A DNA stretch of 10,940 nt, from positions 224,604 through 235,543 of the forward strand of contig CP070695.1 of NCBI GenBank assembly GCA_020353515.1, given 5' to 3'. Positions 3,338-10,195 of this stretch are shown here, one piece after another; positions within the stretch are counted from its first letter, which is position 1; each line of letters opens with the position of its first letter. The notes below the pieces were generated by a model. It was not told where the DNA came from. It did no database searches and saw only the letters and a list, made by a program, of their open reading frames with translations. The DNA comes from Candidatus Heimdallarchaeota archaeon (GTDB taxonomy: Archaea; Asgardarchaeota; Heimdallarchaeia; Hodarchaeales; Hodarchaeaceae). The position numbers and the translations under genes were made by a program.

Positions 3338-3532
3338 TTAATTGCCAAAATCTGGAATATCGGGTAATAATTCTTCAAATTGCTTCTGTGTCTTTAACTT
3401 CATTTCAGGAATCTTTTCGGGACGATAATATTTCAGAAACACTTCTTGATGGACTTTTTTATTGTTAACAACACTGTAAAATAATTTTAACCACTGGTCC
3501 TTTTTTTGGACATATAAATTTTCAGGCTTCAT
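3338..3532 (-). pseudogene. Truncated 64-aa N-terminal fragment of an ATC-hydrolase-like paralog; duplicate of the gene starting at 81
   Basis: Starts 6 nt after the stop of 3539-4264. FEELLPDIPDFGN resembles IQELLPFFKDHDN in the neighbour, then TAA TGA follows. The first 27 codons are identical to 81-1. Confidence 0.6.
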
Positions 3533-3534
3533 TT
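3452..3534. repeat. Direct repeat copy B (identical to 1-83)
   Basis: Direct base-by-base identity. Confidence 0.97.
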
Positions 3535-3538
3535 TTTT

Positions 3539-4264
3539 TCACTCACTAATGAAATATCTCATATCACATACTTCATCACCATTAGATAGCGTGTGTTCTC
3601 TCTGGTATTTGCCCCCTTCAACAAGATGTTCAGCTACGGTATAATCATAAGTACACCAAGTTCTTCTGAAAAAAGTCATCTCTTCTTCCCCGAATTGCGC
3701 ATAGAAATCATATACAGGACATGAATAGATATCCATATGATACACGTTTCTATCCTTGTACAGTTTTGTTTTATAGCCTGGTTCACTGTATGGAAATTTC
3801 AAAGCATCTTTAAGGCGCTTTCCCAGATAGGCTAATGGATCCTTCGTCCGTAGTTTAGCCAGCTTCAATCTCAACGGATCAAAAATTGGAACTACACCCT
3901 TCATGTTCACACGAACTTGCCAGATCAAGTCTGCGACCAGGTTCGTGGCGTAACTGGGATCTATTTTTTCTTTTACCATAGCTCTGTATATAGCTAAGTG
4001 TATCAATCCGGCATATTCATTCATGTAATTACCGATATTATCGTGGTCTTTGAAAAAAGGCAATAACTCTTGAATATTCGATTCTACCCGTGATATTATC
4101 TGTTCCATTTCCTTGGGAGTGAAGCGACCGTTTTCCGGTATTCCATCCTGTCTGCATCTCGGTGTCAATATCTGGACTATGACTTCTTTGTGAACTCCCC
4201 ATGCCTTTCTACGGATTATTTTTTTGCTAAGTAGTTTGAATAAGGTCATAGTATTCTCACTCAT
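3539..4264 (-). CDS. L-2-amino-thiazoline-4-carboxylate (ATC) hydrolase-like family protein
   Basis: C-terminal signature DIYSCPVYDFY...WCTYDY...REHTLSNGDEVCDMRY with three conserved Cys. The family name does not establish the activity. Confidence 0.8.
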   Translation of the reverse strand: MSENTMTLFKLLSKKIIRRKAWGVHKEVIVQILTPRCRQDGIPENGRFTPKEMEQIISRVESNIQELLPFFKDHDNIGNYMNEYAGLIHLAIYRAMVKEKIDPSYATNLVADLIWQVRVNMKGVVPIFDPLRLKLAKLRTKDPLAYLGKRLKDALKFPYSEPGYKTKLYKDRNVYHMDIYSCPVYDFYAQFGEEEMTFFRRTWCTYDYTVAEHLVEGGKYQREHTLSNGDEVCDMRYFISE

Positions 4265-6194: not shown

Positions 6195-7082
6195 TTATCT
6201 ACTCATCAACTCATTCATATCACGAAAAACATCATTAACCATGTTGAGAATAGAAAAGTGACCCAATCCAGGATAAGTTTTTAGGTTTGAATGAGGGAGT
6301 ATTTTACTTAACGCCTCTGAAAACTGAATTGGGACAAATTTATCCTCTGTTCCGTGATATATATGAACTGGGATGGAAATCTCTCTAAGATCAAAACCCC
6401 AATCTCGATATTGGAGTAATGCATCTAATGCAGGCCCTTTTGATCCTTGTCGAAAAGATTCTTTGACATCGTTTGCCAAAAATTCCGTAGTTTCGTGATC
6501 CTCTGCAATCATCTGTTTATCTGTTTCACACATTGAGCTCTTGAAATTATTCATCAACTTTTCCCCTCCCTGCCGTGAAACCAAGAATCCCATTATACGA
6601 TAAAAAACACGAAATATCACAGGAATTTTAATAGTTCTACCGAAAGTGCGTTCTATTGGAGCAAGGTGCTTGTATAGCTTTCCATCAATATTAGGTACCC
6701 AACCACCCATATCAGCCGTAAATTGAATATGATTTGGAATCTCATAAGCACAGGCAAGAAGAGGAGGATTACCACCTGAAGCCCCTATAATGCCAAATTT
6801 TTCAATTTCAAGATGAGCAGCAAGTTCTAAAACATCATTTGGCCAGTCAAGCCAAGTTCTATTTTTTTGAAAATCTGACTTCCCCATCCCAGGACGATCA
6901 GGAGAAATTATTCGAAAATTATATTTAATTCCAGGCTTATCGGTATGAATAGCTTCTAAACGTGACCCCGGGGATCCATGAAAGAAAAAAACTGGGAAAC
7001 CTTTAGTATATCCATATTCACTATATGCTAGTTTTCTACCATTACTTAATTTAAGAAATTTTACATTTTCTGCCTCAATCAT
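6195..7082 (-). CDS. Alpha/beta fold hydrolase
   Basis: FHGSPGSR oxyanion region, DRPGMGKS, nucleophile GASGG, HGTED acid and GLGH His. Likely co-transcribed with TetR. Confidence 0.93.
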   Translation of the reverse strand: MIEAENVKFLKLSNGRKLAYSEYGYTKGFPVFFFHGSPGSRLEAIHTDKPGIKYNFRIISPDRPGMGKSDFQKNRTWLDWPNDVLELAAHLEIEKFGIIGASGGNPPLLACAYEIPNHIQFTADMGGWVPNIDGKLYKHLAPIERTFGRTIKIPVIFRVFYRIMGFLVSRQGGEKLMNNFKSSMCETDKQMIAEDHETTEFLANDVKESFRQGSKGPALDALLQYRDWGFDLREISIPVHIYHGTEDKFVPIQFSEALSKILPHSNLKTYPGLGHFSILNMVNDVFRDMNELMSR

Positions 7083-7118
7083 GTCATATACCTTTATTTC
7101 AACTAATATGCTAAAATC

Positions 7119-7145
7119 ATTTAAATACTTACTTTACGGTAAGTA
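7119..7145 (-). promoter_or_regulatory. Putative TATA box (TTTAAA, about 7125-7120) and adjacent TetR-like operator palindrome TACTTAC-N6-GTAAGTA (7126-7145)
   Basis: Perfect 7-bp inverted repeat immediately upstream of the TATA-like box, about 40 nt before the hydrolase-TetR operon start. Confidence 0.6.
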
Positions 7146-7346
7146 ACTAAATTAATTACTTGAGTCAAAAAATTTTTAATATCCTTTTGCTTTGAATATG
7201 TTATCAGAAGGATATACAGTATGTTCTTTTTGTAAATCCAGAAGATTGAAATCGAATGAAACATTTGTTGGTAAATTTTGTTCCATTATCCAACATCTAG
7301 TTCACGAAAAGCTTTACATGTAATTCATTTAGGATATGCAACGTTT

Positions 7347-7654
7347 AATGATTGAAACGCTAGCCCCATAGCTATTTCGGGAAGAACCAGCTATTCTTGT
7401 TGCATTCACCCTTCTACCAAAACAATGATTGAAGTATTATGGGGATCAAGTGTTCGCGATCTTTAACGAAAGCTGCATTCACCCTTCTACCAAAACAATG
7501 ATTGAAGTATTATGGGGATCAAGTGTTCGCGATCTTTAACGAAAGCTGCATTCACCCTTCTGTTAAAACAATGATTGAGTAACTCACATTTTCCTCCTAC
7601 TCCGTTATGGAGATTTTGTTGCATCCACTCTTCTGCCAAAACAATGATTGAAAC
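7347..7654 (+). CRISPR. Degenerate mini CRISPR-like array with no cas genes in the window: 37-bp repeats (consensus about GTTGCATTCACCCTTCTRCCAAAACAATGATTGAAAC) and 4 spacers, 2 of them identical
   Basis: Repeats at 7399-7435, 7472-7508, 7545-7581 and 7618-7654 (period 73), plus the remnant AATGATTGAAAC at 7347-7358. Spacers: 7359-7398 (40 nt), 7436-7471 = 7509-7544 (36 nt), 7582-7617 (36 nt). GTT...ATTGAAAC ends are typical of Cas6-processed type I/III repeats. Confidence 0.85.
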
Positions 7655-8091
7655 TTGAGAAAAACAAAGAGCGAAACTTTCAAGATGTAAATTATACAGG
7701 AAAACCGTTTATTGGCATTGTGAAACATTATGGGGTTGGAGTAAGAGTTATGAAAGCAATTCATGAGTCCTCATTGATTTTACCTGATGAATGGTATCAC
7801 ATTAAAGTAACGCGAGAGTCAGATTTATTCAGTGTATATTTAGACGGTGACCTAATAATGAGATATGATGACCCTGATCCTTTCGATAATTATTGGGATT
7901 TTGAAAAGGAATCCCATCAGTTTCAATTTGCATCTCATGGCCAGACTCGTTTCGATAACATAACAGTCACGGAAAATACAGGCAAGAATGAATCTAAAAT
8001 TGCACCAGGTTGGGATATTCCTACGTTCATAATAGTCCTATCAGTGATGATCGGAATGAGAGAAAGAAAGAGGAGGATAAGAAAGAGTTAA
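7648..8091 (+). pseudogene. C-terminal fragment of a surface protein (ConA/LamG-like beta-sandwich + PGW-CTERM-like anchor) lacking its N-terminus
   Basis: EWYHIKVTR..FSVYLDG and FDNITV motifs, and the tail APGWDIPTFIIVLSVMIGMRERKRR. No signal peptide. The computed TTG start lies inside the last CRISPR repeat. Confidence 0.6.
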
Positions 8092-8311
8092 CAACTCGGA
8101 AATCCTTCAAAGATAAGCCGAATTCTCGCAAAAGATGGGTGAAATTTGGGGTGAAATCTGGCTACCAATCCCCAATAAGGGGTACATTTTTTACATCCTG
8201 CCTGCAGTATGAGTTATCATCTGCATCATAAATCGTCAGAATTTGAAATACTAAATACAAATGGAATAAAAAAGCTTTCAGGAATAGAAATGATAACATT
8301 TCCTACTCTAT

Positions 8312-10195
8312 CTATTTTTTAATCACAGGTAAACCTATATAACTCGGATGGCTGGGATTTCGGTGTAGTTTGATCATTGGTGGGGGATCCAATACAGGCG
8401 TGTCGAAATTGCTGGTGTCGGCAAAAGCAAGCGTGATCCGAATGCGATCTCCCTCCTTAAACTGATATGAAGTCGGTAGGAGATCGAAGACCAATTCGAA
8501 AGGTTCTCCTACTGTGAGGGGTTCGAGGTCGCTTTCATAATAACGGTGATAGGGAAGATCGAGATTTTCATAGGGCGGAGCGTTTATGGCCCGATGTGAG
8601 GCTCTGAGATTACCCTCGGTGATGTAGGTCGATTTTCCTTTACTATCCACAGTTTCCATGTAGACAAAAACATCCAAATCCACGGAATCGGTTGTTAGCC
8701 AGAGATGGATGACAGGATGGCCAGTGACCTCCATGTTACCATCCAACGGTGGTGTCGTGTAAGTAAGTGCTTTTTCATCGTTATCACGCATATTGGGGTA
8801 ATTACTGGCTCTAAGAACAGCACCCCAGCGCGAATTTTCACCGCTGGTAGTCGTATAATTTACCCTATAAGTGTCATTTGCTTTTGGGGAAGTCGGCTCT
8901 TCGAGGGTCAGGAATCCATCGTTAGTCGAGGCAACGCTGCCAGTCTTACCGGAGTGAAAATAGAATCGTATCTGTTCTTGGTTTGAAAGCGGCCAAAGAT
9001 CACTCGGTTGCCAAGCTTCCTTCTTCGGCGTGTTAATGGTGTAGTAATAGATGGGTGACTCGGTCATGATCCCATTATCGATACCCTTGAGCCAATAATC
9101 GAACCAGCGGTGCACCTCGGCTCCAAAATCAAGGTCGGAGCCATCACCTTCAACTTCGCTGTGATCTAGTGGCCGGATGATCAGACGCCGCGGAACGGTT
9201 AAGTTGGTGTACCAAAGGAACATATCACCAGTGAATAGGTCGTACCAACCATTGGTCATGTAGATCGGAATACCAGCTTGATTAATCCGCTCAATGAAAG
9301 GGTAGAGCGCAAAATCCCCCTCCCAGACATTATCACCCTTAGGGGTTGTACTGTCGCGAAATGGGTACTTCTTGAGAACCTCCACCGATTTTTCGCTAAC
9401 CGTCGCACCGCTGCGTTCTGCACGCGCCTGAGCCATGAGTACTCCGTTCTCATCATCGTCCACAGGTGTTGCCATGACTTCCAGCGCGCTTATGGACCAT
9501 GAAAACAGGGTGTTGAAGGTTTGGTTATAAACACCACCCCGGTAGTTGACCGCACTGTAGCTGTCCAGAGAACTGGAGATCGGAAAAATGGCTTTCAGGT
9601 GTGAGTTGCCGGTACTTGCGGCCGCGAATTGGATCATCGCTTGCCATGAATCGCCATACATGCCGATATAGCCATTACACCATTCCTGAGCAGCGATCCA
9701 ATCCAGGATTTCATTGGCTTGTTTAGCCCCAACTTCAAAAGATGGATCCATGACCCCGAAGGAAGCACCTGTCCCAGGTCGTTCGACCACTATAACAGCA
9801 TAACCATGGTGGAGCAGAATTTTTAACCAGCTGGTATTAAAGACTGCGTCCATCAGGTGTCCTTGATTGGAGGTCTTGTAACGTATGCGGAGCATAACTT
9901 TCTGGAACCAGTTCAAATCGTACAATTCTCCAAGCAGGAAATTACCATCTGCATCAAAAATCGTAAAAGCACGCAGGTAGGGCGTGTATTTGAAGAGCGT
10001 AGGCAAAGGTTCATCTGCTGGCACACCATCTTTCGTGGGCAGAAGAAGGTCATATGCTAACCGAGTGCCATCGCTAAGAGTCAGGTATTTTGAGTGGCGC
10101 TTATAACCATCAAAGATAGCATCCGAATAACCTTGGTATTGGCCGAATTGGGATACTTTCTTACCATTTGTTATTTTGCTTAAGATTTTGTACAT
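8312..10195 (-). CDS. CocE/NonD family hydrolase (peptidase S15 / PepX C-terminal domain)
   Basis: LSDGTRLAYDL, YTPY, GYAVIVVERPGTGASFG, WIAAQEWCNG.IGMYGDSW, GWYD, RWFDYWLKG, PTSYQFKEGDRIR. Confidence 0.93.
   Translation of the reverse strand: MYKILSKITNGKKVSQFGQYQGYSDAIFDGYKRHSKYLTLSDGTRLAYDLLLPTKDGVPADEPLPTLFKYTPYLRAFTIFDADGNFLLGELYDLNWFQKVMLRIRYKTSNQGHLMDAVFNTSWLKILLHHGYAVIVVERPGTGASFGVMDPSFEVGAKQANEILDWIAAQEWCNGYIGMYGDSWQAMIQFAAASTGNSHLKAIFPISSSLDSYSAVNYRGGVYNQTFNTLFSWSISALEVMATPVDDDENGVLMAQARAERSGATVSEKSVEVLKKYPFRDSTTPKGDNVWEGDFALYPFIERINQAGIPIYMTNGWYDLFTGDMFLWYTNLTVPRRLIIRPLDHSEVEGDGSDLDFGAEVHRWFDYWLKGIDNGIMTESPIYYYTINTPKKEAWQPSDLWPLSNQEQIRFYFHSGKTGSVASTNDGFLTLEEPTSPKANDTYRVNYTTTSGENSRWGAVLRASNYPNMRDNDEKALTYTTPPLDGNMEVTGHPVIHLWLTTDSVDLDVFVYMETVDSKGKSTYITEGNLRASHRAINAPPYENLDLPYHRYYESDLEPLTVGEPFELVFDLLPTSYQFKEGDRIRITLAFADTSNFDTPVLDPPPMIKLHRNPSHPSYIGLPVIKK

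Follow-up and report, generated by a model that had tools for sequence, protein, structure and literature searches.

An orphan CRISPR array of a type I-B repeat family in a Candidatus Heimdallarchaeota genome, probably a non-functional relic

In Clostridium thermocellum, the type I-B repeat listed as 'CRISPR-9' has 37 nt, a AAAACAAGGATTGAAAC tail and an 8-nt 5′ handle (PMC3737339); its family combines spacers of about 36 nt with a period of 73–74 nt and little secondary structure. Within the archaeal genus considered here, one genome (G012) holds a complete type I-B locus on a 21-kb contig (C252), with the operon order cas8b-cas7-cas5-cas3-cas6b-cas1-cas2-cas4 and profile matches to Cas8b (PF09484, E 2e-108), Cas7 (PF05107) and Cas6b (PF17955 and PF17262). 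Past the operon lie a leader of ~100 nt and then 37-nt repeats ending AAAACAAGGATTGAAAC at a 74-nt period; this array, located just after cas1, was found by a pattern search for paired ATTGAAAC tails. The same genome has a second Cas1-linked array (C343, L172; 4160–4269) whose 37-nt repeat is a different one, has the ending GAGGATTGAAAT and recurs every 73 nt, so that two CRISPR systems occur in one genome of the genus. Overall, Cas1 was present in just 3 of 21 same-genus genomes, so that loss and patchiness of CRISPR are normal for this genus. Orphan arrays of cas-less genomes, finally, have no detectable cas genes, degenerate repeats, no leader and few spacers.

Here, we describe an array from a window (the whole stretch of DNA that was analysed, 10,940 nucleotides) of Candidatus Heimdallarchaeota archaeon, an uncultured archaeon from sediment. 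The window is one whole 10.9-kb contig lying exactly between two 100-N joins, and the 4.94-Mb genome sequence is a MAG (96% completeness, 7.4% contamination) whose about 113 contigs are strung together by 112 internal runs of exactly 100 N, so that arguments from absence in the genome or from neighbouring windows must take these joins into account. The first ~409 kb of the MAG consist of 51 small contigs in descending size order. The contig was placed in this genus because a gene fragment and an intergenic element flanking the array (see below) match same-genus genomes. Both array junctions were recovered with zero differences in Logan contigs from two sediment studies, the left one in contigs covering 7045–7430, 7086–7358 and 7213–7366 and the right one in contigs covering 7532–8212, 7474–7998 and 7580–7730, which shows that the array structure is real and no assembly artefact. 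In X3, one contig lacks a 73-nt unit (it passes from 7400 straight to 7474), which would be explained by a genuine three-repeat allele or by collapse of the exact duplicate at the k-mer level.

Repeat finding and TRF (score 335) agreed with the sequence-only reading of this DNA, which had described four 37-nt repeats at a 73-nt period, a 12-nt remnant and spacers of 36–40 nt. The repeats occupy 7399–7654 with start-to-start distances of 73, 73 and 73 nt, and the features of the locus (R, repeat; S, spacer) are as follows:

7347..7358, + strand: R0, the 3′-terminal 12 nt of a repeat, AATGATTGAAAC; exact copy of 7643–7654
7359..7398, + strand: spacer S0, 40 nt
7399..7435, + strand: repeat R1, 37 nt; handle mutated to ATTGAAGT
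7436..7471, + strand: spacer S1, 36 nt; no protospacer found
7472..7508, + strand: repeat R2; differs from R1 by 1 nt (position 2, T to C)
7509..7544, + strand: spacer S2, 36 nt; same sequence as S1
7545..7581, + strand: repeat R3, the one that has degenerated furthest (30/37 to R1); handle ATTGAGTA
7582..7617, + strand: spacer S3, 36 nt; no protospacer found
7618..7654, + strand: repeat R4, the nearest of the repeats to the family consensus; handle ATTGAAAC intact
7661..7677, + strand: R5, a degenerate 17-nt repeat tail, 14/17 match, 6 nt past R4
7685..8091, + strand: gene fragment, the C-terminal ~135 codons of a ConA-like / 3-keto-disaccharide-hydrolase-fold membrane-anchored protein

The array shows what generic CRISPR recognition looks for: three or more direct repeats of 23–47 nt, a regular period, and spacers between the repeats that are similar in length but unrelated in sequence. 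Of its spacers (36–40 nt), only the duplicated S1 and S2 are related to each other. As had been noticed, every repeat differs from the others: compared to R1, we counted 1 difference in R2, 5 in R4 and 7 in R3. The contrast between the internal repeats and the last repeat and remnant also held, with R1 and R2 ending ATTGAAGT, R3 ending ATTGAGTA, and R4 and the R0 stub ending ATTGAAAC. The 8-nt handle is mutated in three of the four repeats (R1–R3), which retain the repeat portion upstream of the presumed Cas6b cut site, and is intact in R4 and in the R0 stub. Positions 7401–7473 and 7474–7546 are 100% identical; S1 therefore equals S2 through the tandem duplication of one repeat-spacer unit rather than through two acquisitions, and the GT-ending variant is common to R1–R3 because one variant unit was duplicated. 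The earlier view that this pattern reverses the usual trailer-end decay is unsafe, as the leader end is missing and a degenerate stub is present at the 3′ end. At the left end, the R0 stub lies 77 nt, rather than 73, ahead of the end of R1, and the 25 nt on its 5′ side match the repeat at chance level and are not repeat-like. At the right end, the R5 tail follows R4 after only 6 nt, indicating an internal deletion of a spacer and of the 5′ part of a repeat. Folding of the array repeats gave no stable hairpin or other stable fold, and Rfam returned no family over the array, either at gathering thresholds or at E ≤ 10.

Judged from its tail, the repeat is most probably a member of the known 37-nt type I-B (Cas6b) family ending AAAACAAGGATTGAAAC. 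The tail found here, AAAACAATGATTGAAAC, matches the family tail at 16 of 17 positions and is one base off (G to T) in all copies. The family named in the sequence-only reading was thus the right one, although the ending given there, AAAACAAGG..., is one base away from the tail that the array actually has. A lack of similarity to known CRISPR repeats had been named as the result that would speak against a CRISPR array; instead, the 16/17 tail links the repeat to a known family, and the CRISPR assignment is supported by both the G012 type I-B array and the C. thermocellum type I-B repeat (PMC3737339). Over the whole repeat, identity to Cas-linked or same-tail arrays and to the published type I-B repeat is 22–26/37. 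R4 has 25/37 identities to arrays of two genomes (G181 and G238), 24/37 to a third (G232), 22/37 to that of G012 and, by our own count, 25/37 to the C. thermocellum repeat (repeat from PMC3737339). Arrays sharing the family tail occur in several genomes of the phylum (including G181, G232, G238 and G175) and have 24–26/37 identities to R1 or R4. Overall, archaeal and bacterial members of the family resemble the repeat to about the same degree.

Compared to CRISPR-9 (PMC3737339), the array thus has the same repeat length of 37 nt, the GTTG start, an AAAACAA-GATTGAAAC tail (16/17) and the spacer length, period and near lack of secondary structure of that family. It differs in the middle of the repeat (25/37 overall), in the one G to T change in the tail and in having a mutated handle in three of four copies, with Cas6b not found in the MAG. 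The G012 locus (repeat L171:3152–3188) comes from the same genus and the same repeat family (22/37; 16/17 in the tail) and shares the array orientation, in which the handle closes the repeat on its 3′ side; unlike the window, it has a full cas operon and a leader of ~100 nt, and there is zero synteny between both loci. Searches in larger collections returned no cognate repeat. A 26-base pattern scan of the genome-contig collection found none, and the matches of a two-copy 11-mer scan were rejected as other 37-nt families ending GATGATTGAAAC (Chloroflexota, Chthonomonadales and an uncultured archaeon; ≤26/37). The metagenome scan gave two unrelated loci, one of which (L062) is a non-CRISPR 55-nt tandem duplication, and scans of the viral collection gave nothing or chance single 17-mers.

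No cas, defence or virus hallmark family was found among the ORFs of the window (whole contig, 7.3 kb to the left and 3.3 kb to the right of the array); the earlier statement that no cas gene lies within these flanks was borne out on the contig ORFs, and the contig ends there in the 100-N joins. In the MAG, a profile search with ten Pfam models detected no Cas1, Cas2, Cas6_C, Cas6b_C, RAMPs, DevR, Cas_Cas7, Cas8b (TM1802) or Cas5, PF17262, PF05107, PF09484 and PF09704 included and Cas7 being represented by three families; each of the Cas models gave matches in control genomes. When the eight Cas proteins of G012 were searched against the MAG by tblastn, nothing better than E 0.06 was obtained. 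The repeat has no further copy in the MAG, a k-mer scan found no other CRISPR-like array there, and none of the 23 other genomes of the order contains the array. Two checks that had been proposed, for a genomic cas operon with a cognate repeat and for conservation in relatives, were accordingly negative in the MAG and in these 23 genomes. The DNA upstream of the array resembled the leaders of four relatives only at shuffle level, the first unit of the array is the 12-nt stub, and no synteny was seen between the window and the cas loci of relatives. The piece 7286–7319, which also occurs at a contig end in another genome (G005), was considered as a CRISPR leader mark and rejected, that contig being without cas genes.

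The right-hand side of the array runs into a damaged gene. The mechanical ORF 7648–8091 begins inside R4, while homology of the gene fragment begins at about 7685 (tblastn and blastn), 8 nt past the R5 stub, and PF06439 matches at profile positions 122–186 of 187 alone, i.e. its last third. Full-length relatives of the fragment (in G007 and G009) have 295–334 aa, which together with the start of homology at ~7685 means that about 195 N-terminal codons are gone. At the DNA level, 7685–8091 is 81% identical to the gene of the same-genus G009, and the N-terminal half was absent elsewhere in the MAG. Extension of the tblastn alignment through R4 was rejected, as it gave just 8/31 identities and a stop codon, and so was derivation of the array from the missing N-terminal half, since the similarity was no better than that of shuffles. 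Deletion has thus left scars inside repeats at both ends of the array, and on the right it also took half a native gene.

The spacer search that had been suggested succeeded for S0 and failed for S1 and S3. Positions 7356–7394, which take in most of S0, match the LSU rRNA gene of Vescimonas at 36 of 39 positions on the opposite strand (BLAST against plasmid records, E 2e-5), and 185 rRNA-bearing plasmid records match the same interval at 89–92% identity. The best match lies inside a bacterial LSU rRNA gene (RF02541, 2755 bits). Contigs of other organisms match the window at 7359–7395 alone and continue into unrelated sequence on both sides. The 23S of same-genus relatives, whose LSU rRNA fits the archaeal model (2782 bits), agrees with S0 at 19 of 21 positions of the homologous site and then diverges; the MAG contains no LSU (23S) rRNA gene of its own for this comparison. 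S0 is thus a piece of bacterial-type 23S with the length of a spacer; on the + strand it reads antisense, and its borders at the repeats are sharp. Spacer acquisition yields spacer-sized foreign inserts bounded by repeats, and S0, as a foreign fragment of this kind, argues against a non-CRISPR origin. S1 and S3 had no match in phages, plasmids, the MAG or 83 genomes of the class, and half-spacer matches in IMG/VR failed to extend (22–25/36). Among the phage, plasmid-record and IMG/VR searches, none of S0, S1 and S3 had a match to a mobile (viral) element, the plasmid-record matches of S0 being rRNA.

We consider it probable that what survives at this locus is an orphaned part of a CRISPR array of the type I-B family, and infer that it no longer functions. 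Of the two possibilities offered by the sequence-only reading, the relic is favoured because no cas gene and no second array were found in the MAG, because the array is absent from the 23 relatives, and because both array ends and the neighbouring gene are truncated. Signs of decay are the stubs at both ends, the exact unit duplication, the mutated handles and the lack of a recognisable leader. Counting against a relic are the intact R4 and the retention in R1–R3 of the portion upstream of the presumed cut site. The identity of the array in contigs of two studies fits either a recent origin or maintenance, and since the MAG is incomplete and in ~113 contigs, a cas operon could lie on an unbinned contig or plasmid. 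Like the orphan arrays of cas-less genomes, the array has no detectable cas genes, degenerate repeats, no leader and few spacers; in addition, it displays both deletion breakpoints and a truncated neighbouring gene, and nothing essential differs.

The order of events would then be the following. Transcription of an ancestral or donor array of 37-nt repeats would have run along the + strand, with Cas6b cutting 8 nt before each repeat end to give crRNAs with a ATTGAAAC 5′ handle, and these would have been loaded into a Cas8b-Cas7-Cas5 Cascade. Deletions would then have removed the cas genes together with the leader and the greater part of the array, with breakpoints inside repeats, one of them leaving the 12-nt stub at 7347 and another the 17-nt stub at 7661, 8 nt before the native gene that is short of its first ~195 codons. 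The four remaining repeats would have drifted by point mutation, and one repeat-spacer unit would have been copied through repeat-mediated unequal recombination or slippage. Alternatively, the starting point may have been the transfer of a fragment of a type I-B locus instead of the deletion of a resident one.

An alternative explanation is that the array is still functional in trans, being served by a type I-B Cas6b and Cascade encoded on DNA missing from the MAG, and perhaps transcribed from promoter-like AT-rich boxes near 7121–7183. We regard this as unlikely. The fragmented and incomplete MAG, the existence in the genus of a type I-B system with a related repeat, the intact R4 and the invariance of the array across two studies would all fit such a guide locus, which had been the second proposal of the sequence-only reading. 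However, the MAG yielded no cas gene of ten families and no match with type I-B proteins, and a second array with the same repeat was absent from the MAG, the 23 relatives and the genome, metagenome and viral collections. No leader was recognised, decay is indicated by both stubs, by the doubled spacer and by the handle mutations, and the spacers are without a mobile-element match; the proposal thus received no positive support. Somewhat less likely still is a version in which the array is native, its own type I-B adaptation machinery captured bacterial 23S rDNA or rRNA, and the remnant is perhaps still used in trans.

A regulatory RNA of the CreTA type, or another cr-like RNA, whose 'spacer' pairs partially with a nearby gene or promoter and represses it via Cascade, appears very improbable. 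In the parts of PMC8501985 and PMC9458426 available to us, CreA is, like the array of the window, a short array with divergent and degenerate repeats; it consists of two repeats around a single pseudo-spacer, sits at a cas operon and keeps the neighbouring toxin repressed via Cascade. The window array has, in contrast, four repeats, spacers of ordinary length, no cas genes and no convincing target. Besides the degenerate repeats, the point in favour of this explanation is a match of 17/22 between the R1/S1 junction (7430–7451) and 7721–7742, a conserved coding stretch (K-H-Y-G) of the gene fragment. This match was treated as chance because 5% of shuffled flanks reach its score, and it sits in the coding body of the truncated gene and not at a promoter; it also lies near where a fifth repeat would end (7726 versus an expected 7727). 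According to the same parts of these two sources (PMC8501985, PMC9458426), CreA modules are located in or beside cas operons and need Cascade, none of which was found here, and no toxin-like small gene was identified.

Just as improbable is a mini-array that serves inter-element competition and travels on a virus, a plasmid or an integrated element. A short array without cas genes is typical of virus-borne mini-arrays, at least as these are presented in the part of PMC6858448 available to us. However, the genes on the contig encode a TetR regulator, an alpha/beta hydrolase, an S15 peptidase and others, and hallmarks of viruses or plasmids are absent. Chromosomes of the same genus have counterparts of both the gene fragment and the intergenic element upstream, and the spacers match no viral contigs. 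Least probable of all is a non-CRISPR tandem repeat such as a gene-internal duplication or binding-site iterons, which would suit the plain tandem duplication R1-S1-R2-S2 and the lack of a stable hairpin but not the unrelated S0, S1 and S3 of constant length between conserved 37-mers, the 16/17 tail match to a documented Cas6b-family repeat, the spacer-sized foreign insert S0, a 73-nt period that is no multiple of 3, the dissimilarity of the array to the missing part of the neighbouring gene or the failure to find the 37-mer scattered through related genomes as an element unconnected with CRISPR.

Taken as a relic, the array, found among metabolic genes, is a decaying orphan of a well-known repeat family and no new guide-RNA system, which makes it a clean negative. 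It would document the loss of CRISPR-Cas in a genus where these systems are patchy, with the deletion scars and the collateral truncation of a neighbouring gene still visible. The sole feature worth remark is the bacterial-type 23S rDNA spacer in an archaeal genome, a minor curiosity. If the array is native, S0 would be a record of DNA of a neighbouring or partner bacterium entering the archaeal cell. If the array was transferred, S0 would have been self-targeting in a bacterial donor and harmless in the archaeal host. Self-targeting spacers are a known prelude or route to cas loss, as described in the part of PMC6990116 available to us; like the autoimmunity spacers treated there, S0 matches a conserved cellular gene (23S rDNA) and the cas genes are missing. 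Unlike the self-matching spacers of that part of the source (PMC6990116), S0 matches a bacterial-type and not an archaeal 23S, so it would be 'self' only with a bacterial donor.

Several further observations were made along the way. At the helix that corresponds to S0, the LSU rRNA of same-genus genomes comes in two clearly distinct sequences (L138 versus L147, L140 and L141), and one genome (G014) holds both types (L138 = C57, L147 = C38), which reflects either MAG contamination or divergent rRNA operons. In the window, the gene at 8312–10195, encoding the S15 peptidase (X-Pro dipeptidyl-peptidase/CocE-type), has a GC content of 47.5% compared to about 36% for its neighbours and the genome, and was probably gained recently by horizontal transfer. 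The intergenic element at 7222–7320 is found as stretches of about 85–100 nt with 75–88% identity in five same-genus genomes, where its surroundings are different (it precedes a carboxylesterase or an MFS transporter, among others) and where its copies carry a GGAAC-N4-GTTCC-like palindrome. Its minus strand folds at −20.8 kcal/mol (z −2.5), and the five copies gave no supported consensus structure; the element is probably a shared promoter/operator region, and possibly a small mobile or RNA element. Finally, the first 92 nt of the contig (1–92) are 97% identical to the internal stretch 3452–3543, which is either a real duplication or a contig-end assembly effect.
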